9,278 nt of DNA. Source: a virus (lineage: Duplodnaviria; Heunggongvirae; Uroviricota; Caudoviricetes). Made by a program: the position numbers and the translations under genes. The stretch is taken from positions 1-9,278 of IMG/VR virus record IMGVR_UViG_2690316243_000015; one strand, written 5' to 3'. This document shows, in pieces, positions 1-9,278 of the stretch (position 1 is the stretch's first letter; each line of letters starts with the position of its first letter). The notes below the pieces were generated by a model. It made no database searches. It was not told the DNA's origin and saw only the letters and a program-made list of their open reading frames with translations.

Positions 1-351
1 TCACGGCGCAGAAGTGTACCAACCGAAACTTGTTAACCCGGCATCGCAGCGCTCACGATTAAGCACACGTGGCGGGTTTTCTCTGGTCATCAACTCAAGC
101 AAGGCATTGCCTCCCTGCGTCTCTAGGCGGTATTGCCTATCGGTAGTGGTAATGGCATCCGGCAATAACTTTATGGCGGCCTGGCTAAAGTCTCGCGGTG
201 CGCCGTAAAATTGCGCATCAACAATATGAACCACATCGCCGTTAATCGTTGTCCGATAACGGTCTGGCTGTATGGTAAAGCCCCCACAATGGATAGCAGA
301 TAGTGCCGGTGCCGAGGAGATCAGGCCGGCTGCCAGAATGTATGGCTTCAT
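1..351 (-). CDS. Putative exported protein, partial (C-terminus lies beyond the window start); N-terminal signal-peptide-like segment
   Basis: ORF-track ORF 1..351; N-terminus MKPYILAAGLISSAPALSAIHC has a basic n-region, hydrophobic core and ALSA-type cleavage context. Start ATG (349-351) overlaps the stop of the upstream peptidase gene as ATGA. No recognised family. Confidence 0.4.
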   Translation of the reverse strand: MKPYILAAGLISSAPALSAIHCGGFTIQPDRYRTTINGDVVHIVDAQFYGAPRDFSQAAIKLLPDAITTTDRQYRLETQGGNALLELMTRENPPRVLNRERCDAGLTSFGWYTSAP

Positions 352-989
352 TCTTCACCCACCAATTCATCCAGTTCAGCCAGCGTCATAGGCTTTGGTA
401 CAGGCTTGTCAATATCACCCATAATGCGCTGGAAGTTGCTGGCAGGCATATGGTTACGGTTCTCCAGTATTTTCGCCAGCGCGATAACATCCCACCATTT
501 CAGGGCAATCAGCGCCTCAGCACGGGAAAGGGATATTCTCTGTATATCAGCATCCTCCCCACCAGCCACCCGGTATACCTCTGATAAATCACGAACATTT
601 TTCATGTCTGCTTTCCCGGACGTTTCCATCAGTGCGTTAATATCATCCCCCGTATAGCGTGATTGCGCGACGATACCAGCCAGAGAGATAACCATAGCCC
701 GGCATACCTGGTCTATCAGACGTAACCTGGTGTCATCATTCGAGAGGGTGTAAGACTTAACCTCAGCCACATTCCGTGGATAGTTGGCGTGCCATACCGC
801 GACAGCTCCACATTCATCAACATCGCCGCTAAGGTAGGTTTTTGCCACTCGGTTATTACCCGATAACGCAATTTCTACCTCCTGTATGCCGAAAAACCAT
901 GCGGCTATCGCATGACCTGCTTCATGTATTGCAAGATGTCTGGGCCAGCGATAGCTGCCGAACTCAATAATGATGGGTTGCGTACTCAT
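348..989 (-). CDS. HExxH zinc-metallopeptidase-like protein (FtsH/M41-like peptidase domain without an ATPase module)
   Basis: Motif AIHEAGHAIAAW resembles the FtsH YHEAGHA zinc site; downstream SLAGIVAQSRYTGDDIN loosely resembles the FtsH protease-domain LGGRAAE..TGA..D region. Start placed at ATG 987-989 (MSTQP...) because of a GAGGGAAG Shine-Dalgarno ~6 nt upstream; the ORF-track ORF extends to 1067 but that would overlap the upstream gene. Confidence 0.55.
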   Translation of the reverse strand: MSTQPIIIEFGSYRWPRHLAIHEAGHAIAAWFFGIQEVEIALSGNNRVAKTYLSGDVDECGAVAVWHANYPRNVAEVKSYTLSNDDTRLRLIDQVCRAMVISLAGIVAQSRYTGDDINALMETSGKADMKNVRDLSEVYRVAGGEDADIQRISLSRAEALIALKWWDVIALAKILENRNHMPASNFQRIMGDIDKPVPKPMTLAELDELVGEE

Positions 990-999
990 ATCTTCCCTC

Positions 1000-1434
1000 T
1001 CAGAATGGCGTTTCATCGTCGAATGGTGGGCGTTGGTCGTATTCATCACGGGATGGCTGCTGCGCACGTCTCAGCGCGTCCGTTGCCTGTCCCCGCTGTC
1101 CTGCCTTCCCGCCGGGGCGTACCGTTCTGGCGCTGATCACACTGTCGGCTACTACCTGATACCCCTGCTGTGTACCGCCGTCCTGCCCTGTCCACTGGTT
1201 GAGTTGCATATTGCCTGCCACGCTCACAAGGTCGCCTTTCTGGTGCTTTGCCAGCGCATCGGCCTGCTTCCCAAAAGCAATAACGCCCAGCCAGAAGGTT
1301 GACTCTCCCGCCTCTGCCGCATTACAGGGGAGAGACACCGCCAGCCGCGCCATAGCCATGTTGTTACCGTTCGTTGTGGTGCGGGTCTGGGGATCTGCCA
1401 CCAGCCGCCCGTATGCTGAAATTTGTGCTGTCAT
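1000..1434 (-). CDS. Divergent single-stranded DNA-binding protein (SSB-like OB fold with acidic C-terminal tail)
   Basis: Aligns by eye to E. coli SSB: [15 protein letters not shown] vs [40 protein letters not shown] vs [35 protein letters not shown] vs RKWTDQSGQ; C-terminus PPFDDETPF vs DFDDDIPF. GGAGAG Shine-Dalgarno 9 nt upstream; ATGA overlap with the upstream gene. Confidence 0.7.
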   Translation of the reverse strand: [144 protein letters not shown]

Positions 1435-1688
1435 GCTGTCTGCTCTCCGGTTTTAACGTTGATGGTTGTCACCTGTTCCGCTTCGGCAATCTCCCGTTCT
1501 GTCAGCGTGGCAAAATTTGCCGCCGCCGTTGTCATGAATGCGCTTATCAGTTCGGGATGTGCTTTTGCGTATCCTTCTCCCGTGTTGCGGTCGATGATTT
1601 TTATCGCCAACCTCAGCCAGTGCTCTGTAAGGTCAATAGTGCGGTTATGTGGTTTCTTCTGATTATTAAGTTTTCCTGATGTGTGCAT
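1431..1688 (-). CDS. Small hypothetical protein (85 aa from MHTSGK...; the ORF could start at 1748)
   Basis: ORF-track ORF 1431..1748; internal ATG at 1686-1688 has GAGGGGG ~13 nt upstream and avoids running into the iteron region. Stop overlaps the SSB start (ATGA). No recognised family. Confidence 0.45.
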   Translation of the reverse strand: MHTSGKLNNQKKPHNRTIDLTEHWLRLAIKIIDRNTGEGYAKAHPELISAFMTTAAANFATLTEREIAEAEQVTTINVKTGEQTA

Positions 1689-1737
1689 TTTTGTTTTTAC
1701 CCCCTCGTTTAAAAAGTTTTGAGTTGTACCTCCCCCC

Positions 1738-1967
1738 CCTCTACCCATCTACCCGAATGCTCCTCAGGTCAGTAATGGCGCGGCTTTCAGCGGGTAGATA
1801 GCTTTTTGGGCTCCTCTACCTGCCGTCTACCCGGCTACCTGAAATTGATAAAATCAGGTAGATGAGGTAGAGAGCTTTTGAACCCCCTCTACCTGCCATC
1901 TACCTGATATATTCTACTGAATAATATATATTTATTTACTTAAGGTAGAGGGGGGAGAGGGCTTTTG
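1738..1967. repeat. Iteron-like repeat array plus AT-rich tract; putative replication origin for the adjacent primase/helicase
   Basis: At least seven direct copies of (T)CTACC (at 1741, 1748, 1815, 1826, 1835, 1888, 1899) and four inverted GGTAGA (1793, 1857, 1866, 1944). Two ~28-bp units, GGTAGATAGCTTTTTGGGCTCCTCTACC (1793-1820) and GGTAGAGAGCTTTTGAACCCCCTCTACC (1866-1893), each carry internal inverted ends. A near-pure AT tract lies at ~1905-1943. Located in the only sizeable intergenic gap, immediately 3' of the primase gene. Confidence 0.55.
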
Positions 1968-1974
1968 CCAAAAA

Positions 1975-3729
1975 CTATAAAAACGCGTCGCAATCGTCTG
2001 TTGTTATTGCGTTAGTCTGCGTTACCCCCTTAATTTTCCGCGTAATATATTCATGTCCGTAAACTTTCGCCGCTGGCTTCATAGCTTTGCTGAACTCAGC
2101 TACGTTCAGCGGCTTGTTCCTGCCGGCATACGCCATAAACGCCAGATAGACGCGGTAAAGGCTGTTTCTGGTCGTGTACCTGGAAGAGTCACCGCCGCCG
2201 CCCATCATCAGGCCGCGTGCTTCTTCCAGAAAGTTAAGGAACTGGCAAAATTCAATAACCGGATCCGTCTGTTGCTTTATTGCCAGTGCTTCATCACCGT
2301 CACGCTGTTCCAGTAGTAAAGCCCGTGCCTTTTCAGGGTCGGCAAAGTTCGCCAGCAAGCGGCGGATAATGACTGGGATTTCAGCCGCGATTTTTTCCGG
2401 TAGTTCTCTGTCTTTTTCGGCCTCACTGACGATATTGTCGAAACGGAAAATCACGCGACGACGTGCCACGCCTCCGGCCCGTTCGGTGAATATCATCGGG
2501 TTGTTATTGGTTGCCAGCACAACCGCCCTGATTACCGCTGTGAAACGCTTCTCATATTTCGGGTTAATTTCCACGGGGTCGCCGCCAGTGATTTTCTTGA
2601 TGCCCGTGCCTTCGCCTGTATATTTCGGCTGGTCTGCCAGGACAATAAGCCGACTCCCGACAACCTGCGCACGTCCACCAGCATCATCAAGCGATGTCAT
2701 TTCAGCGCTTACCGTGTTCTGTTTCCCTGCCAGAAGGCTGGCTATGTGCGTGAAAGTGCTCTTGCCGCTCCCGCCGTCTCCGGTGGCCTCAATAAACATC
2801 TGCCAGTCGTGGCGGTTCGCCATAATCATGTACAGCGCGGCGCATATGCGCATCATCTTGTGCGGGTCTTTTCCGGCTGCATGTTCAAGCCATTTGTGGA
2901 AGTTCGGCGCGTTGTCGCGGATGTTTTCCCCTGGTACTGGTGGCGTGTATTCAATGCCGTTGTGTGTGGTGAGCCAGTTCTCCGGCTGGTGCGGTGAAAA
3001 TTCCCCCGTTATCAGGTTAAGCACACCATTGGCAAACGGCAGCAAATCACCGGACGGCTCGCCCATCGGGTCAGCAATAACTTTTAACGCTTCAACGGCG
3101 TTATTAATTGCCCGCTTGCTGAATGTGGCCCCGTGTTCTGAATAAACCGCCACCATTTCGCGGCTCAGTTCCATTGTGCTGACCGGACACCATACCCCGC
3201 CGCGCCATACGTGAACGATTTCACTTTCAGGATGCACGCAAACGCCATCAAAGCGATCGGCAAGCAGCTGCGCGCGCTCACTGTCCGCCATCTGCGAAAG
3301 TTGCGCCTTTTGCGTTACCGGAAGCTCAATCACCAGACCATCAGAAAGATTCTGGCGCTCACGGGCCAGATATTCGCGCCAGTTCTGCACCTCCTGGCCG
3401 TGCATACCCTCAGGATAAAAATTTGCATCCTGTACGCCTGCCGCCGCCAGCTTCTGACCAATCGCCTTGATCATTACAGGCTCAAGATGTCCGGCTCTGT
3501 ATATGCGTGCTGATTTTCTGCCATCCGGCACAATTTGCAGATTATCTAGTTCGGATAGCTGCTGCTCTCCAAGCCACACAGGAGGCTCATTATCTCCGGC
3601 TGTACGCGCGTCATGTTCCTGCCACTGTTTCGCGTGTGCCCAGGCATCACTACCCGCAAAAATGATCACTTCGGTTTGAGCGTGTTTTATTCCGCGTGGC
3701 TGTTTTTTTACGTTCGGTGCCAGTTTCAT
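1975..3729 (-). CDS. P4 alpha-type replication protein (phage/plasmid primase, P4-family C-terminal domain with SF3-type helicase Walker A GDGGSGKST)
   Basis: 584-aa ORF; Walker A TGDGGSGKSTF; later VVLATNNNP resembles SF3 helicase motif C; overall resemblance to P4-family primase C-terminal region. AGGGG Shine-Dalgarno 8 nt upstream; ATGA overlap with the upstream gene. Confidence 0.8.
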   Translation of the reverse strand: MKLAPNVKKQPRGIKHAQTEVIIFAGSDAWAHAKQWQEHDARTAGDNEPPVWLGEQQLSELDNLQIVPDGRKSARIYRAGHLEPVMIKAIGQKLAAAGVQDANFYPEGMHGQEVQNWREYLARERQNLSDGLVIELPVTQKAQLSQMADSERAQLLADRFDGVCVHPESEIVHVWRGGVWCPVSTMELSREMVAVYSEHGATFSKRAINNAVEALKVIADPMGEPSGDLLPFANGVLNLITGEFSPHQPENWLTTHNGIEYTPPVPGENIRDNAPNFHKWLEHAAGKDPHKMMRICAALYMIMANRHDWQMFIEATGDGGSGKSTFTHIASLLAGKQNTVSAEMTSLDDAGGRAQVVGSRLIVLADQPKYTGEGTGIKKITGGDPVEINPKYEKRFTAVIRAVVLATNNNPMIFTERAGGVARRRVIFRFDNIVSEAEKDRELPEKIAAEIPVIIRRLLANFADPEKARALLLEQRDGDEALAIKQQTDPVIEFCQFLNFLEEARGLMMGGGGDSSRYTTRNSLYRVYLAFMAYAGRNKPLNVAEFSKAMKPAAKVYGHEYITRKIKGVTQTNAITTDDCDAFL

Positions 3730-4025
3730 TTTTTACCCCTGAATGCGTTAAGCATGTTTTTCATTTCCTGAATATTTGCCCGCGCCTTTTCCCTGCTGGT
3801 GGACTGTTTGCGTGGCGCGGCCTGTACCAGCGAAAAATCACGCCGGAACTGATAAACAGGCATCACGCAATCATAGTCGTAGCCTTCACGGCGGTAAGTG
3901 ATGCGCCGTTCTGCCACGCCTTTAATCGTTACCGTACCGCCGTAGTTATCCCGGAAAATATCTCCGTGTCTGATTTCAGGCCGAGCGGGGCCGCTGGCAG
4001 TAAAGCCAGAATTTTTCTTTTTCAT
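3726..4025 (-). CDS. Small hypothetical protein (99 aa), paralogue of the 60-aa protein at 5270-5452
   Basis: Shared motif GGTVTIKGVAERRITYRREGYDYDCVMPVYQFRRDF vs GALVTVESVSHNRVTFYRDGYQSPCVQPLARFMKEF. AGGAAAA Shine-Dalgarno; stop overlaps the primase start. Confidence 0.55.
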   Translation of the reverse strand: MKKKNSGFTASGPARPEIRHGDIFRDNYGGTVTIKGVAERRITYRREGYDYDCVMPVYQFRRDFSLVQAAPRKQSTSREKARANIQEMKNMLNAFRGKK

Positions 4026-4029
4026 GGTT

Positions 4030-4230
4030 TTATTTTCCTGTCAGCAGTTCCGGTTTTATTTCCGCACGAATACAGAGTTCAGAAAAAAATTCAGGAGAAC
4101 CAACAATCTCATTACTTTTCAGTCGGCATTGTGATTTCACTTTCCCTTTATCCAGGTAAACCAGTACGCGTCCTGTATAATCTGACGGCACATTCAGCAC
4201 TACAGGTAAGTGCGCTTCATGATGATTCAT
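4030..4230 (-). CDS. Small hypothetical protein (66 aa), paralogue of the adjacent 71-aa protein
   Basis: YTGRVLVYLDKGKVKSQCRLKSNEIVGSPEFFSELCIRA aligns with FTGQLLVNVDKGRVVCNYHLPDEAIVATRESLQELAERA. GGGGGTGAG Shine-Dalgarno directly upstream of the ATG. Confidence 0.5.
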   Translation of the reverse strand: MNHHEAHLPVVLNVPSDYTGRVLVYLDKGKVKSQCRLKSNEIVGSPEFFSELCIRAEIKPELLTGK

Positions 4231-4432
4231 GTCTCACCCCCTGAATATTCGCGTTAATCATTCCGGCACGTTCTGCGAGTTCCTGTAATGATTCCCTTGT
4301 TGCGACAATTGCTTCATCTGGCAGGTGGTAATTACATACCACGCGACCTTTATCCACATTGACCAGTAGCTGCCCGGTAAATTTCTCACGAAACTGAATG
4401 CGGTTAAGGTCGGTAAGTGACAGATTAATCAT
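4217..4432 (-). CDS. Small hypothetical protein (71 aa), paralogue of the adjacent 66-aa protein
   Basis: See the paralogue alignment above; GGAGGT Shine-Dalgarno 7 nt upstream; 8-nt overlap with the upstream 283-aa gene and 14-nt overlap with the downstream 66-aa gene. Confidence 0.5.
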   Translation of the reverse strand: MINLSLTDLNRIQFREKFTGQLLVNVDKGRVVCNYHLPDEAIVATRESLQELAERAGMINANIQGVRHESS

Positions 4433-5276
4433 GGCCCACCTCCTGACGAATACGGGCGGCGAATACCATCACGCAGCCATCAGGAGATTGCTGGCGGGCT
4501 TCCTGTTCGCTGGTGGCCACGATGTGAATCACGCGCGGTTGTGCTGTGCTCAGGGCGATAAAGCGCCAGATAAAGGCAGTTTGAGAATGTATAAGGGTAG
4601 GGGTAGTAGCCATGTTGGCAGCCTCCTTCAGATAGCAGGTTACGCTACCACCGGAAACGCCAATTTCGCTGGTGGTAGCCCAGACAGGGTTGGCGTAACC
4701 GGCTCTGAAGGATACCGGCGCTTCCGAAGAAGCCCCCGCCTGAGCCACCATTGATTGACAAAGGCGCTGGATTATACACCAACGCCCAAAAAATGGGTGA
4801 GTCAGACCTACGACATAAAAAAAGACGCTCGGCGCGTCATATGTCGCCTTCAGAATTTTCAGGACGCCAATCCTGGCCCCCGTTTTATGAGGTGCCTTAT
4901 AACCATAAACCGTGTTGCCGCATAACGGCAAGCTCTTTTTTATGGACTCCGAAAACTCACTATTGGAAGAACCAGAGGCACAGTACATCGCGCTCATTTC
5001 GTTAACGTTGCGCATGCGGACGAAGATTTTTGTGGAGTCACTACGCGAGCAGAACAGGTCATCTACGACCAGAAATTCTCTGGCGCAGCCGCTGACCTTC
5101 TCAACGCTAATATCATCGCCCGAGATTTCTGGCATGGTTAAGGCATCCGTTCCGACCACCAGCAAATGATAAACTTTGTTTGTATCTGCTGTATTAATGC
5201 CTGACTTTGCCGCCATATTGCTGGATTTTGGCGACATGCCAGCCAGTGAAAATATCTTCTTCTGGGCGGTTAGCAT
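4425..5276 (-). CDS. Hypothetical protein (283 aa), function unknown
   Basis: Long ORF with GGAGG Shine-Dalgarno 7 nt upstream of the ATG at 5274-5276; start overlaps the stop of the upstream small gene (ATGCTAA). No motif I can assign with confidence. Confidence 0.6.
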
Positions 5277-5452
5277 TTGTTAACCTCCGCGAACTCCTTC
5301 ATGAAACGTGCCAGCGGTTGCACGCATGGCGATTGATACCCGTCGCGATAAAACGTCACTCGGTTGTGAGACACGCTTTCGACAGTAACGAGTGCTCCGT
5401 GGGCATCTTTGTAGCGTTTTTGAGGTTGTGGTGTTCCTGTCGGCTTAAACAT
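5270..5452 (-). CDS. Small hypothetical protein (60 aa from MFKPTG...), paralogue of the 99-aa protein at 3726-4025
   Basis: ORF-track ORF extends to 5539, but the ATG at 5450-5452 has GGAGG 7 nt upstream and overlaps the AntA stop (ATGTTTAA), whereas the longer form would overlap AntA by ~95 nt. Shares the TFYRDGY..C..P..F motif with the 99-aa protein. Confidence 0.5.
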   Translation of the reverse strand: MFKPTGTPQPQKRYKDAHGALVTVESVSHNRVTFYRDGYQSPCVQPLARFMKEFAEVNKC

Positions 5453-6254
5453 GGACCGCCTCCAGACGCTTAGCGAGCCAGCGTTGCGACAGGCGGGTGA
5501 GTTCTCCTTTGCGCTGCTCATATTCCATGCCCATATCAATTAACGTGATATTGGTGCTTTCGAGATAGGCGAGGTGTTCAAGCTGTGCTGCGTTCATGCT
5601 GTCCCGTGGTTCGCCAGTAATGCCATTTGCCTGCGCCCACTGCTTCGCCGTCATGCCACCCAGCACGATACGGGCGATCATGTTGCTCTCGTTGCTGTAG
5701 TGGCGCTGCTGCGTCGTTTTGCCCATCTCGGCACGGGCCATATTCAGCGCATCGCACATTGGCTTAAAGTTGTTTGCGGCACTGAGACGGGCTTTTAGCT
5801 GGCGACGATAGCGGGCGGCGATTTCAGGCACGCTACGCTGTAATTCTTCCTCGCACTGGATGAAATAACGGCGGATAGCGCGGCCCTGCTCGTTGCGTTC
5901 AACCATTGCCACTTCTTTAGCCATATCCAGCGATAGCAGGTAATCATGCTCTATTTGCTGGCGAGTTTTTGCGCTCGCCCGTTTTGGCGTGCTCAAATTT
6001 TCAACACGGATAAAATCGGTTCCGGCAATAAAACCGTACTGGTCAATTCGGACTTTAATCCAGTTAGTAAAGTCGCGGCCCACCCCCAGCGCTTTATGCA
6101 ACGCCTTAGCGCTCACAATATTGGCTTCACGCCCGCCAATGCGTCCGGCAATAACGGGAACAATAGCGGCAAAGTCGTTGCCGTTAATTACTCCCGTGTT
6201 AACGTTGGGTTGCGGGGCGGCCCCCGAACTGAATCGGCTTTTTTCGATAGTCAT
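5445..6254 (-). CDS. AntA/AntB-family phage antirepressor-like protein
   Basis: SAKALHKALGVGRDFTNWIKVRIDQYGFIAGTDF and LSLDMAKEVAMVERNEQGRAIRRYFIQCEE match the conserved AntA-domain signature as I recall it. Start placed at ATG 6252-6254 (MTIEK...) with GGAG 8 nt upstream; the ORF-track start at 6314 would overlap the upstream gene. Confidence 0.6.
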   Translation of the reverse strand: MTIEKSRFSSGAAPQPNVNTGVINGNDFAAIVPVIAGRIGGREANIVSAKALHKALGVGRDFTNWIKVRIDQYGFIAGTDFIRVENLSTPKRASAKTRQQIEHDYLLSLDMAKEVAMVERNEQGRAIRRYFIQCEEELQRSVPEIAARYRRQLKARLSAANNFKPMCDALNMARAEMGKTTQQRHYSNESNMIARIVLGGMTAKQWAQANGITGEPRDSMNAAQLEHLAYLESTNITLIDMGMEYEQRKGELTRLSQRWLAKRLEAVHV

Positions 6255-6267
6255 ATTTTCGGCTCCG

Positions 6268-6699
6268 TTATGCGGCGGTGAGATTGTCCGGGTATAGATT
6301 GAGAATGTCGGCAATTTCAGGCTGAGAAAGTCCCTGATAGCCGCCAGCGTCGGCGTTATGGTTCACAAGCCGAATAACTTTTAGAACGTCACCGCGCCCG
6401 GTAAAGCGATAGCGTAAATGTGACCCTATCCCGTCGGGGTTCTTTTCGTCTATACGCTCAAGCTGAATATCAAGCCTGCGCTCTAACTCGCTGGCGTAGT
6501 TCCTTCCAGACGAAAGGCGGCAATAACGCAGAATGTCATTTTCTGTCCATCCCTCTATACCAGTACGCAGCATATAGACTCTGGCACGATGCTTTTTCGG
6601 TGTGCGCTTTGGTGCTTGAAGGGATTTTGTAAGGGGCGTAACATCAGATACGCGAATATCTGAATTAGCCGCCTGTAATGGGCGGTTTTTCTTTTCCAT
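6268..6699 (-). CDS. Hypothetical protein (143 aa), basic N-terminus, function unknown
   Basis: ORF with AAGGTGG Shine-Dalgarno; its ATG overlaps the AlpA stop by 1 nt (TGATG), indicating co-translation with alpA. No recognised family. Confidence 0.5.
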   Translation of the reverse strand: MEKKNRPLQAANSDIRVSDVTPLTKSLQAPKRTPKKHRARVYMLRTGIEGWTENDILRYCRLSSGRNYASELERRLDIQLERIDEKNPDGIGSHLRYRFTGRGDVLKVIRLVNHNADAGGYQGLSQPEIADILNLYPDNLTAA

Positions 6700-6902
6700 C
6701 AGGCCACCTTCCCGCGGCGTTCTGCCAGCCAGTTGTGAATCTCAACCGCATCAAACGCAGTTATTTTTTCTCCCAGCTTTACCGGACGTGGTAGTGAACC
6801 GTTTCTTACTTTACGGTCGATGGTGGATACACTAACGCCCAGCAATTCAGCCAGGCGGAAGCGTCTGATATAGCCTTTTGTAGGGATAGTGTCGATGTTC
6901 AT
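6699..6902 (-). CDS. alpA: AlpA/Vis-family transcriptional regulator / excision accessory protein (MerR-like HTH)
   Basis: 67 aa; IRRFRLAELLGVSVSTIDRKVRNGSLPRPVKLGEKITAFDAVEIHNWL fits the AlpA (CP4-57 regulatory protein) pattern of an HTH followed by P.P.KLG and a conserved W. Typical size and position next to a P4-type integrase. Confidence 0.8.
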   Translation of the reverse strand: MNIDTIPTKGYIRRFRLAELLGVSVSTIDRKVRNGSLPRPVKLGEKITAFDAVEIHNWLAERRGKVA

Positions 6903-6985
6903 GATTCCCGTAACCTCTTAGCGATAGTTGTTGCTTCGTTACGGGTATTTAATGGCGTGCACGCTCAAAAAGGAATGATCGTATT

Positions 6986-7028
6986 TTTTACTATCGTGAT
7001 AGTAAAATTTACTATCACCTTTTTTTCC
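6986..7028. promoter_or_regulatory. Perfect 23-bp palindrome GTGATAGTAAAATTTACTATCAC (6996-7018) with an extra TACTATC half-site (6989-6995), followed by a T7 run; operator-like site or terminator
   Basis: Direct reading: three TACTATC/GATAGTA half-sites centred ~10-11 bp apart; lies ~95-125 nt upstream of the alpA ATG and overlaps the stop codon of the 282-aa gene. Confidence 0.4.
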
Positions 7029-7863
7029 CTGCCGTGGTGCGTTCTTCCGGTGTTCTGTCTGCGTCGGCTATGAGTTTCTTCAGGTAATCTATGGATGGCT
7101 CATCATAGCCGCCCCCCAAAAGCGCCCAGTGGTTTATTGTGGCGTTCGCCCATGCTTCGTTGGTTTCCTTCCCGTTCTTCCCTTTACACTCTTCTGGGTA
7201 GTGCCGCTTCACATAAATCAACGCCAAGAGGCAAATTTCGCGCTTTTGCCTGTGGCGCTCTCTGTTTCCGTGCTCAACGTTTTTAACATCCTCATAAAGA
7301 GCTTGTAAGTTTATGCGAGTTTCGGGGCTGTATATGGGCTGGTTTTTGTCCATGCATTCGCCGATATATTCAACCCACGGCCTTGTTATGTACAAATCCT
7401 CTACGGATATTTCGTGGAAGGCATGTTTTGTATAATCGAGAAAAAAATAATAATTCGCACTTACGTCTAGTTCTCTTTTTCTGTGTGCGGGGCTGAATAT
7501 GCGTGCGGGAGTGTCAATAGAATCAAGCCCTGCGATGTCGAGTATATAGGAGGCGTTAACATGCCATAGCCCAAGCACATGGCAATCTATATGATTTACA
7601 ACGCCTGCCTTAAAGCTTTTTTCGTCCTCTACTTCAGTGATTATGTCGGCAAGTAATAAGCAGTCTTCTTTGACGTCTGGGAATAAAGAGCAATTGCGGT
7701 AAAGACTCGCGATGCTATGTAATGTGCCGTCGTAGCCGCAAAGGTACGCGCTCAAATATATAGATTCTGCCGCCGCCATAATCAAAAGATCATCAATATC
7801 TATTTCTAATAATTCGGCTGCTCTGTTAAGCCTGAAAAAAGGGGCGGGTGGTAATTTTTTCAT
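7015..7863 (-). CDS. Hypothetical protein (282 aa); AT-rich orphan gene between int and alpA
   Basis: Intact ORF with AAGGTG Shine-Dalgarno 7 nt upstream. Hand GC counts on three 60-nt lines inside it give ~35-43%, against ~60% for sampled lines in int and the primase. No recognised catalytic motif. Confidence 0.6.
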   Translation of the reverse strand: MKKLPPAPFFRLNRAAELLEIDIDDLLIMAAAESIYLSAYLCGYDGTLHSIASLYRNCSLFPDVKEDCLLLADIITEVEDEKSFKAGVVNHIDCHVLGLWHVNASYILDIAGLDSIDTPARIFSPAHRKRELDVSANYYFFLDYTKHAFHEISVEDLYITRPWVEYIGECMDKNQPIYSPETRINLQALYEDVKNVEHGNRERHRQKREICLLALIYVKRHYPEECKGKNGKETNEAWANATINHWALLGGGYDEPSIDYLKKLIADADRTPEERTTAGKKR

Positions 7864-7958
7864 TGCGTCACCTTTTACGCTGCGCCTTATTTTGTGATTG
7901 AGCCAGGCGGTAAGGCTTCCCGCTTTTCGCCCCGTCGAGCTAGGCTCAATCTATTCAG

Positions 7959-9278
7959 TTAGTTCGCCCTTCTGAGAGGCGTTACGTTGTAGTCTTTTCC
8001 GCTTTCCAGTGCCACCAGCAGATCAGCCCACTGTGCCAGTGCTGCTTTACGCTCATCAAAATACTGATGGCGGTTATAAATCCCCTCTACGCCCTTAATG
8101 CGATGATTGAGGCATCGTTCCGCCACAACAGGATCAACACCCAACGCTGCTAAATGAGTACGTGCGGTGCGTCGAAAGTCGTGAATCGTGAAATTAGGCA
8201 CATCCGGCATTTCGGCGCGAACCTTAGCCAGTGCTACGGGTAAAGTGCTTTCCTGAATATGTGGGATCATTCTGTTTTGCATCTTCCTGGCCGGAAGCAC
8301 CCATGCGCTATTACATGAAAAGGTGTGTAGCTCTCTCAACCATTCAACGGCTGGGGAAGGTAGAGGTATATCAATAGGGTCTCCGTTTTTGCTGCGTTCT
8401 TCCGGCAAATGCCATACCGCACCATCTAAATCAAACTCTTCCCATCGTGCGGCGCATAATTCCATTTTGCGGACGCATAACGCTAACAGTAATTTGAACG
8501 TGATTTCGTTCTGGCGACTGAATCCCTTAGCCGTGCGCATGGCTTTGAATAGCTGGATTAACTCATCGCGGGTTAACCAGCGGTCACGGGCAGCTTCTTT
8601 CCCTCCGGCGTCTGCCACCTCAAAGGCTGAACAGGGGTTAATCTCTAGCGCGTGCCGTTTGATTCCGTAGTCGAATATGCGGCGCGTCCATCTCAGCACG
8701 TCCGTTGCTATGGTCGGCGCTCCACGGTCAACAATACCTTTCAGCATGTCATCGATATGGCGCGGTTTCACGTCCTCTACCTTCATGCTGCCAATGCAGG
8801 GGTTTATATCTTTGTCGATACGGCGGCGGAGTATATCGGGGTGCTTCCAGCGCGGGAGGATCTGACGCTCAAAGTATTCAGCGGCAAGCTCTGAAACGCG
8901 CATAGCGTTCTTCTCTGCTTCCATCTTCGCCAGTGCTTCGGTTTTGCGCTTCTGCTTCTCTCCTGCAACGTCATAGCCCAGCGCAACGCGAGCCGATAGC
9001 TCTTTGGCTGTCTCTCTGGCCTTTGATAGTGATAGCTCGCTATACGAACCAATTAGCATGGCGCGGGACTTCCCTGCGAGTTTATAGCGGAATCTCCATG
9101 TGGGGGTTTTGTCGGCTTCACGGTAACGTAGGTATAAACCGTTACCGTCTGCCCGCCCCTCGAATCGCTCTCCGCTCTTAATCCATGCGCGGATCTGCAT
9201 GTCTGTTAGTTTTGGCATTTTGCGAATATCCAAACTTTGAATAGGGGGTGTACCCAAAGCAATGTACCCAAACCTCAT
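7959..9278 (-). CDS. int: Tyrosine site-specific integrase (P4-like); 5' end at or beyond the window edge
   Basis: C-terminal catalytic region with HDFRRTARTHL (HxxR) and terminal IYNRHQYFDER (candidate catalytic Tyr); N-terminal region typical of phage integrase arm-binding domains. The ORF reaches the window edge at 9278; an internal ATG at 9216-9218 (MPKLTDMQIRAW...) is a plausible true start but has no clear Shine-Dalgarno. Confidence 0.9.
   Translation of the reverse strand: MRFGYIALGTPPIQSLDIRKMPKLTDMQIRAWIKSGERFEGRADGNGLYLRYREADKTPTWRFRYKLAGKSRAMLIGSYSELSLSKARETAKELSARVALGYDVAGEKQKRKTEALAKMEAEKNAMRVSELAAEYFERQILPRWKHPDILRRRIDKDINPCIGSMKVEDVKPRHIDDMLKGIVDRGAPTIATDVLRWTRRIFDYGIKRHALEINPCSAFEVADAGGKEAARDRWLTRDELIQLFKAMRTAKGFSRQNEITFKLLLALCVRKMELCAARWEEFDLDGAVWHLPEERSKNGDPIDIPLPSPAVEWLRELHTFSCNSAWVLPARKMQNRMIPHIQESTLPVALAKVRAEMPDVPNFTIHDFRRTARTHLAALGVDPVVAERCLNHRIKGVEGIYNRHQYFDERKAALAQWADLLVALESGKDYNVTPLRRAN

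Follow-up and report, generated by a model that had tools for sequence, protein, structure and literature searches.

In the literature on phage-inducible chromosomal islands (PICIs), the genes for primase, single-stranded DNA-binding protein (SSB) and DUF5906 proteins are grouped with mapped origins in the replication category (PMC10111431). The 5′ end and the 3′ end of these satellites, as well as the region that follows the primase gene ("after pri"), are hotspots for immune and accessory genes, including immune genes that have been tested (PMC11364771). Icd, Ash, AntA, PerC and ProQ count as accessory genes in the PICI literature. On plasmid R388, binding of single-stranded DNA (ssDNA) and proteolysis are combined in one protein, ArdC, which consists of an ssDNA-binding domain fused to a metalloprotease (PMC7213743). 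Here we compare these systems with four genes on the minus strand at one end of a 9,278-nt stretch of viral DNA (IMG/VR record IMGVR_UViG_2690316243_000015, positions 1 to 9,278; the window). From 5′ to 3′ on that strand they encode a small protein, an SSB, an HExxH protein related to the protease domain of FtsH (peptidase family M41) and a protein with a signal peptide. The explanation that we favour, at somewhat better than even confidence, is that the row is a mosaic of a replication unit and a cargo unit, and that the most probable role of the cargo lies in conflict between satellite and phage.

The four open reading frames (ORFs) proposed in an earlier reading of this DNA, the original prediction, are co-directional and lie on the minus strand. 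The gene for the small 85-aa protein (1431–1688, with an alternative upstream ATG at 1748) overlaps the gene for the 144-aa SSB (1000–1434), and the gene for the 213-aa protein, predicted to be a free-standing M41-like peptidase (348–989), overlaps the gene for the 116-aa exported β protein (1–351). Both overlaps are of the ATGA type that had been proposed, as the plus strand reads tcat at both 1431–1434 and 348–351. The ssb stop codon and the peptidase ATG are separated by a minus-strand spacer of 10 nt (990–999), where the expected Shine-Dalgarno site is found as the ribosome-binding site GAGGGA, 5–6 nt before the ATG. A RefSeq homologue in E. coli that is 99.5% identical shares the 213-aa start of the peptidase, so that a longer 239-aa ORF beginning at GTG is unneeded. 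The row had been taken to be truncated by the window. The last gene is in fact complete, its stop codon at positions 1–3 being the window end, but relatives do carry further genes beyond it, which encode proteins of 98 aa, of 61 aa and of the pRiA4b ORF-3 family and are followed by dinD. Pairwise dN/dS against homologous loci was calculated for a set of three genes, with the small gene outside it, and gave 0.08–0.22 for ssb, 0.15–0.40 for the peptidase gene and 0.17–0.22 for the exported protein gene. These values indicate real coding sequences under purifying selection. The small gene is counted as genuine because its product matches phrog_1231 over the full length of the profile (E = 9e-47). 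No terminator-like sites and no strong minus-strand promoters were found in 1–2100, which is compatible with co-transcription of the row.

The histories of the genes in this row are discordant. In the relative L020, the identities to the window are 92% for the SSB, 68% for the peptidase and 93% for the exported protein, whereas in L002 they are 76, 93 and 83%. The ssb gene has a GC content of 60%, which falls to 50% across the junction with the peptidase gene. Megablast matches end exactly at 1434, the boundary between the small gene and ssb, and approximately 1500 E. coli genomes match just the segment 1435–1800, which holds the small gene and the origin region. The slot between the origin and ssb is variable, and in relatives it is filled by unrelated proteins of 100 aa (L001, 15431–15733) or 69 aa (L020, 5334–5543). 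The SSB lineage itself is optional, since some sister islands replace it. In E. coli L040, a 64-nt remnant of the 3′ end of ssb and the spacer (L040 7822–7882, corresponding to window 1052–989 with 87.5% identity) lies directly before perC, at the place where ssb was replaced. The 3′ end of ssb together with the spacer at 990–999 thus appears to be a recombination joint for cassettes. The discordant identities, the GC jump, the megablast break and the separate occurrences of the genes described below together point to gene-sized cassettes that are swapped at gene boundaries, and to no single co-inherited system. The four genes are very probably a mosaic of a replication unit and an exchangeable cargo unit, and within the latter the peptidase shows what these comparisons identify as allelic replacement between conserved flanks. 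L002 is titled Chryseobacterium sp. 18061, and P0008 and P0031 are titled Pseudomonas graminis, yet the versions of these enterobacterial island genes that they carry have 73–93% identity at the protein level. These non-enterobacterial titles are likely due to contamination or mislabelling.

A scan of species-representative genomes gave two loci only, and the co-occurrence of the genes was assembled from individual contig look-ups. The peptidase lineage of the window, with members that are 62–99% identical, is referred to as lineage 1, and 12 distinct loci of it were examined. SSB genes are found without the peptidase in L014 and L015, where perC begins 11 nt behind ssb, and in L016, where another gene follows. 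On the DNA level, 119 complete E. coli genomes match ssb, compared with 28 for the pair of peptidase and exported protein. Conversely, M41-like peptidases occur without an SSB gene in Salmonella (L017–L019), in E. coli (L027, L040 and L041) and in IMG/VR contigs (L031–L038). The Salmonella pair is situated between int and alpA and consists of a 186-aa M41-like protein (32% identical) whose gene overlaps by 4 nt that of a 114-aa exported homologue (65% identical). In E. coli L040, the slot after the origin contains a gene for a 57-aa protein and an M41-like gene of a second lineage (28% identical). We find this lineage 2 in 53 complete E. coli genomes, one of them E2348/69. In L027 it lies beside a truncated copy of the window's peptidase gene and an intact exported gene, and in IMG/VR contigs it is located between the primase gene and the terS and major-head genes of elements resembling capsid-forming PICIs (cfPICI-like elements). 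In lineage 2 and a further lineage 3, the peptidase gene always overlaps by 4 nt an upstream gene for a conserved protein of 57–58 aa (KPVLLSAEQMQAIRNIQERERQ), perhaps a DNA binder of the ribbon-helix-helix type. Such blocks were seen at L040 6828–7672, L017 7268–8004, L041 6825–7732 and L031 5678–6666. A conserved protein of 183–187 aa is often also encoded upstream of lineages 2 and 3, and the block recurs next to int and after pri.

The downstream neighbour of lineage 1 also changes from locus to locus, but is usually an exported protein. It is the 116-aa exported protein, with a 4-nt overlap, in the E. coli, Buttiauxella and IMG/VR loci, a 356-aa probable lipoprotein (lipobox LPLGAC) in Dickeya, Pectobacterium and Serratia, and perC in others. 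The 356-aa lipoprotein was rejected as a relative of the 116-aa protein, with an hhalign probability of 0.3%.

These occurrences bear on the view that SSB, peptidase and exported protein all belong to a single system of defence or anti-defence, with proteolysis coupled to the binding or sensing of ssDNA by the SSB, in functional analogy to ArdC. All 12 lineage-1 peptidase genes have an SSB gene upstream, with at most one other gene in between, and the distance between the two is only 8–10 nt in the window, in E. coli and in Klebsiella. ArdC itself shows that an ssDNA binder and a metalloprotease can cooperate (PMC7213743), and it resembles the present locus in bringing ssDNA binding and an HExxH protease together on a mobile element. 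However, there are sister islands with an SSB and without a peptidase, lineages 2 and 3 do without an SSB, and the divergence of SSB and peptidase is discordant, with the GC jump at their junction. In Pectobacterium, a ProQ/FinO-like gene (L006 9490–9942) intervenes between ssb and the peptidase gene, and in Dickeya a gene for a 331-aa helix-turn-helix protein of phrog_6204 does so (L004 8962–9957), which shows that the junction accepts insertions by unrelated genes. Here the two functions are encoded by separate and inconsistently linked genes, the protease fold is M41-like, and the peptidase was not found on plasmids. Identity with ArdC was rejected because neither the SSB nor the peptidase contains an ArdC-related Pfam family and plasmid homologues are lacking; nor is there a PADLOC match. 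We therefore regard such a coupled system as very unlikely. The original prediction had grouped the three genes in this way, and the separate occurrences, the discordant histories and the fall in GC content speak against that grouping. On the co-occurrence that it proposed as a check, lineage 1 is always near an SSB gene, the SSB is found without the peptidase, and lineages 2 and 3 are found without the SSB. A part in defence or phage conflict is still plausible for the peptidase as accessory cargo, but ssDNA sensing coupled to a protease is unsupported.

The HEAGH protein is a free-standing, soluble zinc peptidase of the FtsH type that has no unfoldase and is probably active. All of 26 diverse family members share its motif H22-E23-A-G-H26, which aligns with the HEAGHA motif of FtsH. 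Asp-128 is also invariant in the 26 members and aligns, with a weak score for that segment of the profile (domain 2), with the ...AEND... segment of FtsH. It is the putative third zinc ligand. A Pfam search with the single protein gave sub-threshold matches to M50B and M41, the latter with 12.1 bits against a cut-off of 29.9, and searches of PDB, NCBIfam, PHROG and PADLOC with the single protein gave no match. Among the relatives, Peptidase_M41 (PF01434) is matched by 9 of 26 at E ≤ 0.01, with a best value of 1e-13. The profile of the 26-member family matches FtsH chains with an E-value of 6e-9, and the match spans the HEAGH helix and the C-terminal helices, in agreement with the fold of an M41 protease domain. 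The 213-aa peptidase has no AAA match in Pfam, no segment that reaches the transmembrane threshold and no signal peptide. The assignment is based on this profile match, on the invariant residues His-22, Glu-23, His-26 and Asp-128 and on the lack of AAA+, transmembrane and signal sequences. The HExxH metallopeptidase-like protein of the original prediction can thus be described more sharply as a homologue of the FtsH protease domain, and PGAP names a sister lineage "peptidase M41 family protein".

The M41 domain of FtsH and the island peptidase both carry HEAGH as their zinc motif, located on the same helix, and the invariant aspartate further downstream in the peptidase is the putative counterpart of the third FtsH ligand. 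The island peptidase lacks the AAA+ module, the transmembrane segments and the periplasmic domain of FtsH, and is not an FtsH proper. It also differs by an insert of approximately 25 residues (41–62, low confidence) behind the active-site helix, by its score below the Pfam M41 cut-off and by being encoded on a satellite. The family is very small: clustering at 90% identity leaves 23 clusters in a collection of 5.8 billion proteins, and in a set of 1.84 billion proteins it has 60 representatives at E ≤ 0.001. A tblastn search of 50,697 phage records with the peptidase found nothing, and BFVD contained only giant-virus FtsH with non-significant E-values, so that a phage origin was rejected. Three metagenomic proteins of 402–478 aa (P0084, P0085 and P0089) are remote relatives of the peptidase that are fused to an N-terminal tail assembly domain resembling lambda gpI (phrog_32, phrog_31), and their matches in cultured phages are confined to the tail part. 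Another distant M41-like protein (P0105, 195 aa) is encoded at L012 5176–7639, directly after DUF4238 and adjoining a CAP12-PCTIR TIR gene, in surroundings that have the look of a defence island.

The search for the peptidase in plasmids is relevant to the suggestion, also made in the original prediction, that the row is a set of establishment genes as in the leading region of plasmids, where ssb would stand beside anti-restriction or anti-SOS partners. All that speaks for it is that a mobile element here carries an ssb gene. The peptidase had no tblastn match in 72,556 plasmids, the SSB scores poorly with the plasmid-type model NF010292 (the best scores are from general SSB models), and no psiB or ardA homologue is nearby. 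The element is instead a satellite with integrase, AlpA and primase. By its absence from plasmids, this reading is effectively refuted, and we give it almost no credence.

The SSB is a bona fide member of its family and appears to be ordinary replication equipment of the island, with ssDNA binding predicted from its sequence. It consists of an OB fold, a short linker and an acidic C-terminal tip. It matches Pfam PF00436 with 62.1 bits against a cut-off of 26 (E = 5.6e-17), TIGR00621 with 57.1 bits against a cut-off of 53.95, and phrog_44 with an E-value of 6.7e-34, and many solved SSB structures in the PDB are matched as well. A BLASTP alignment with a sequence entered as E. coli SSB gives 31% identity, and in this alignment putative equivalents of the stacking aromatic residues Trp-54, Phe-60 and Trp-88 are present, and that of Trp-40 is absent. 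Acidic C-terminal tips of the D-D-D-I-P-F type recruit partner proteins to bacterial SSBs. The SSB of the island ends in PPFDDETPF and has such an acidic tip. The protein had been called a divergent SSB; it is a genuine SSB, but its divergence is only moderate, since it passes the Pfam and TIGR00621 cut-offs and carries the tip DDETPF. The SSB families, the tip and the replication category for PICI genes (PMC10111431) all argue for a routine role in replication, and the gene should not be read as a sensor. The original prediction was to be given up if its genes proved to be routine replication accessory proteins, and for the SSB gene this is what the published category indicates.

The position of the SSB gene agrees with this role. 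A field of iterons (1730–1967) with direct and inverted repeat families of TCTACC/GGTAGA follows directly after the gene of the primase-helicase, and the four genes lie beyond it, downstream of the origin as had been proposed. The field contains an AT-rich stretch at approximately 1915–1940, as read from the sequence, and is the probable replication origin of the island. The primase-helicase of 584 aa (1975–3729, minus strand), with matches to the Pfam families D5_N (2.4e-15), DUF5906 (5.1e-10) and Pox_D5 (6.1e-5), is by this domain content the predicted replication initiator. The order of primase, iterons and SSB as well as the PF00436 SSB are features of the replication module of Gram-negative PICIs. 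The present locus differs in that this SSB lineage is optional and has no match in the cultured-phage collection at E 1e-10. In this mosaic, the phrog_1231 protein and the SSB form a first unit that extends the module of primase-helicase and iteron origin. The SSB would coat the ssDNA that arises as the induced island replicates, and its DDETPF tip, by analogy with bacterial SSB C termini, may recruit partners from the replisome or repair machinery of the host.

The second unit consists of the M41-like peptidase and the exported β protein. The 116-aa protein is predicted to be a small β protein exported by the Sec pathway. Its conserved Sec-type signal peptide (MKPYILAAGLISSAPALSA) is followed by IHCGG, and of a conserved pair of cysteines, Cys-102 is invariant and Cys-22 nearly so. 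A structure model of modest confidence contains eight β strands. A weak similarity (E = 0.015; hhalign probability 61%) connects the protein to phrog_3443, a family of small exported proteins that are encoded in phage tail modules. One IMG/VR contig (L028, 61–4458) contains tape-measure and baseplate-hub genes joined to a truncated primase gene and the row of ssb, peptidase and exported protein. There, a 113-aa exported protein of phrog_3443 (2617–2958; E = 1e-47) with weak similarity to the 116-aa protein is encoded right after the baseplate-hub gene.

The peptidase is uncharacterized cargo of known satellite hotspots, whereas the SSB and the element type are already known. That these genes do not make up a module for packaging or capsid redirection, and that they sit where accessory genes are expected, had been recognized before and holds, as the "after pri" region and the PICI ends are documented hotspots (PMC11364771). 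The second unit is a swappable cassette at the joint of ssb and perC in the "after pri" hotspot. In the absence of an unfoldase, the peptidase would cut only unstructured or delivered substrates in the cytoplasm, and its exported partner, with which it may cooperate, would work in the periplasm or the envelope. The role that we propose for the unit is interference with competing or helper phages, and not ssDNA sensing. We rate action of the cargo in such conflict as a real possibility, a little short of an even chance. It is suggested by the location in two PICI hotspots (PMC11364771), one behind pri and the other adjoining int, by the rarity of the genes and by allelic replacement, as well as by remote relatives that stand beside DUF4238 and TIR genes or are fused to lambda gpI-like proteins.

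Tai (tail assembly inhibition) is the immune gene already tested from the "after pri" hotspot. As with Tai, the cargo of the island is found after pri and before perC or terS, and it is rare, swappable and unseen by models of the DefenseFinder and PADLOC type. In contrast to Tai, the cargo of the island is a two-gene unit with a protease fold, and is known here from its genes alone. Identity with Tai was rejected, as the profile of the M41-like family gave an hhalign probability of 0.2% with TaiSalA, the one Tai member compared. A more specific proposal, which is tentative and rather unlikely to hold in full, is that the peptidase acts, by itself or together with the exported protein, as a new kind of conflict effector that satellites carry and that cuts an unstructured phage protein, and that its alleles are swapped for specificity. 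The target might be a tail-tip assembly factor, at which the gpI-like fusions hint, or a lysogeny regulator under the control of FtsH.

FtsH controls the lambda proteins CII, CIII and Xis, and the peptidase could by the same token be a regulatory protease of the satellite life cycle that cleaves a regulator of the island or the helper, the exported protein then being unrelated cargo. This would suit a family that is nearly restricted to PICI-like and cfPICI-like elements and has a fixed place between replication and packaging modules. It would also suit the small putative DNA-binding protein of 57–58 aa that is coupled upstream of lineages 2 and 3, an arrangement that recalls the ImmA/ImmR pairs, where such a protein is translationally coupled to an HExxH protease. 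However, the island protease is M41-like and not of family M78 (COG2856), and the lineage of the window has an SSB gene and no small regulator upstream. Only approximately 80 of 5426 complete E. coli genomes contain any M41-like lineage, whereas approximately half of them have parts of this island type, which indicates that the life cycle can run without the gene. The replacement of alleles between conserved flanks is also closer to the behaviour of a specificity or conflict gene. An ImmA-like function is therefore unlikely.

The cargo genes might alternatively be "morons" that serve the fitness of the host, with the exported protein as an envelope or virulence factor and the peptidase as a modulator of proteostasis that mimics FtsH or acts as its decoy. 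The PerC and ProQ-like regulators that occupy the same slot, and the weak similarity of the exported protein to phrog_3443, are in line with this. No similarity of the cargo genes to known virulence or envelope factors was found, however, and the genes are rare and no pathotype enrichment was seen, so that a benefit to the host as their main function is decidedly unlikely.

Several observations weigh against a cargo unit that acts in phage conflict. The constant presence of an SSB gene upstream in all 12 lineage-1 loci leaves some room for a functional link to the SSB within that lineage. The exported partner is not universal, since perC comes next in the Klebsiella loci L008 and L009 and in L029, and lineage 2 lacks an exported partner in L040 and L041. 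For the 116-aa protein, the structure model reaches a pLDDT of 64.6, and by fold it matches small barrels of a generic kind. PADLOC-DB v2 gave zero matches at E ≤ 1 for the four proteins and four downstream neighbours, and in the literature consulted no paper was found that ties M41- or FtsH-like proteases to PICIs or to defence. The near-confinement of the family to PICI-like elements fits a function in the satellite life cycle as well as it fits defence.

The remainder of the window identifies the element as a Gram-negative PICI-type phage satellite, as judged from its gene content. All long ORFs of the window are on the minus strand. Besides the primase-helicase, they encode a tyrosine integrase (PF00589, Arm-DNA-bind_3), AlpA (PF05930), an AntA antirepressor, two DUF4222 proteins and an Ash-family protein, and integrase, AlpA and primase follow the conserved order of PICIs, which are approximately 10–15 kb long. 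No capsid, tail or lysis ORFs are present in the window. Three RNAs on the minus strand score above the Rfam gathering score: C4 antisense RNA (4668–4755, 79.9 bits), isrK (4818–4895, 62.9 bits) and int-alpA (7884–7950, 60.6 bits). These are immunity and regulatory RNAs of the P4/PICI type. The C4 and isrK sites fall within the Ash-family ORF (4425–5276). The closest E. coli relatives have the same architecture and are inserted between yicC and dinD, and the largest share of the window that is found in one place of any complete E. coli genome is 46%. The identification as a PICI is based on the genes for Int, AlpA, AntA, Ash, DUF4222 and primase, on the three RNAs and on the architecture between yicC and dinD.

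Tests of unannotated cargo from PICI hotspots have repeatedly led to new immune genes. The peptidase stands out among such cargo by its tiny family with an intact FtsH-type active site, by the occurrence of at least three lineages in PICI-like and cfPICI-like elements and by allelic replacement. This makes the cargo a fair and cheap candidate for phage-conflict plating assays. The substrate of the peptidase would show how an M41 protease works without an AAA+ unfoldase, and would add either a new type of defence or a new point of control between satellite and helper.

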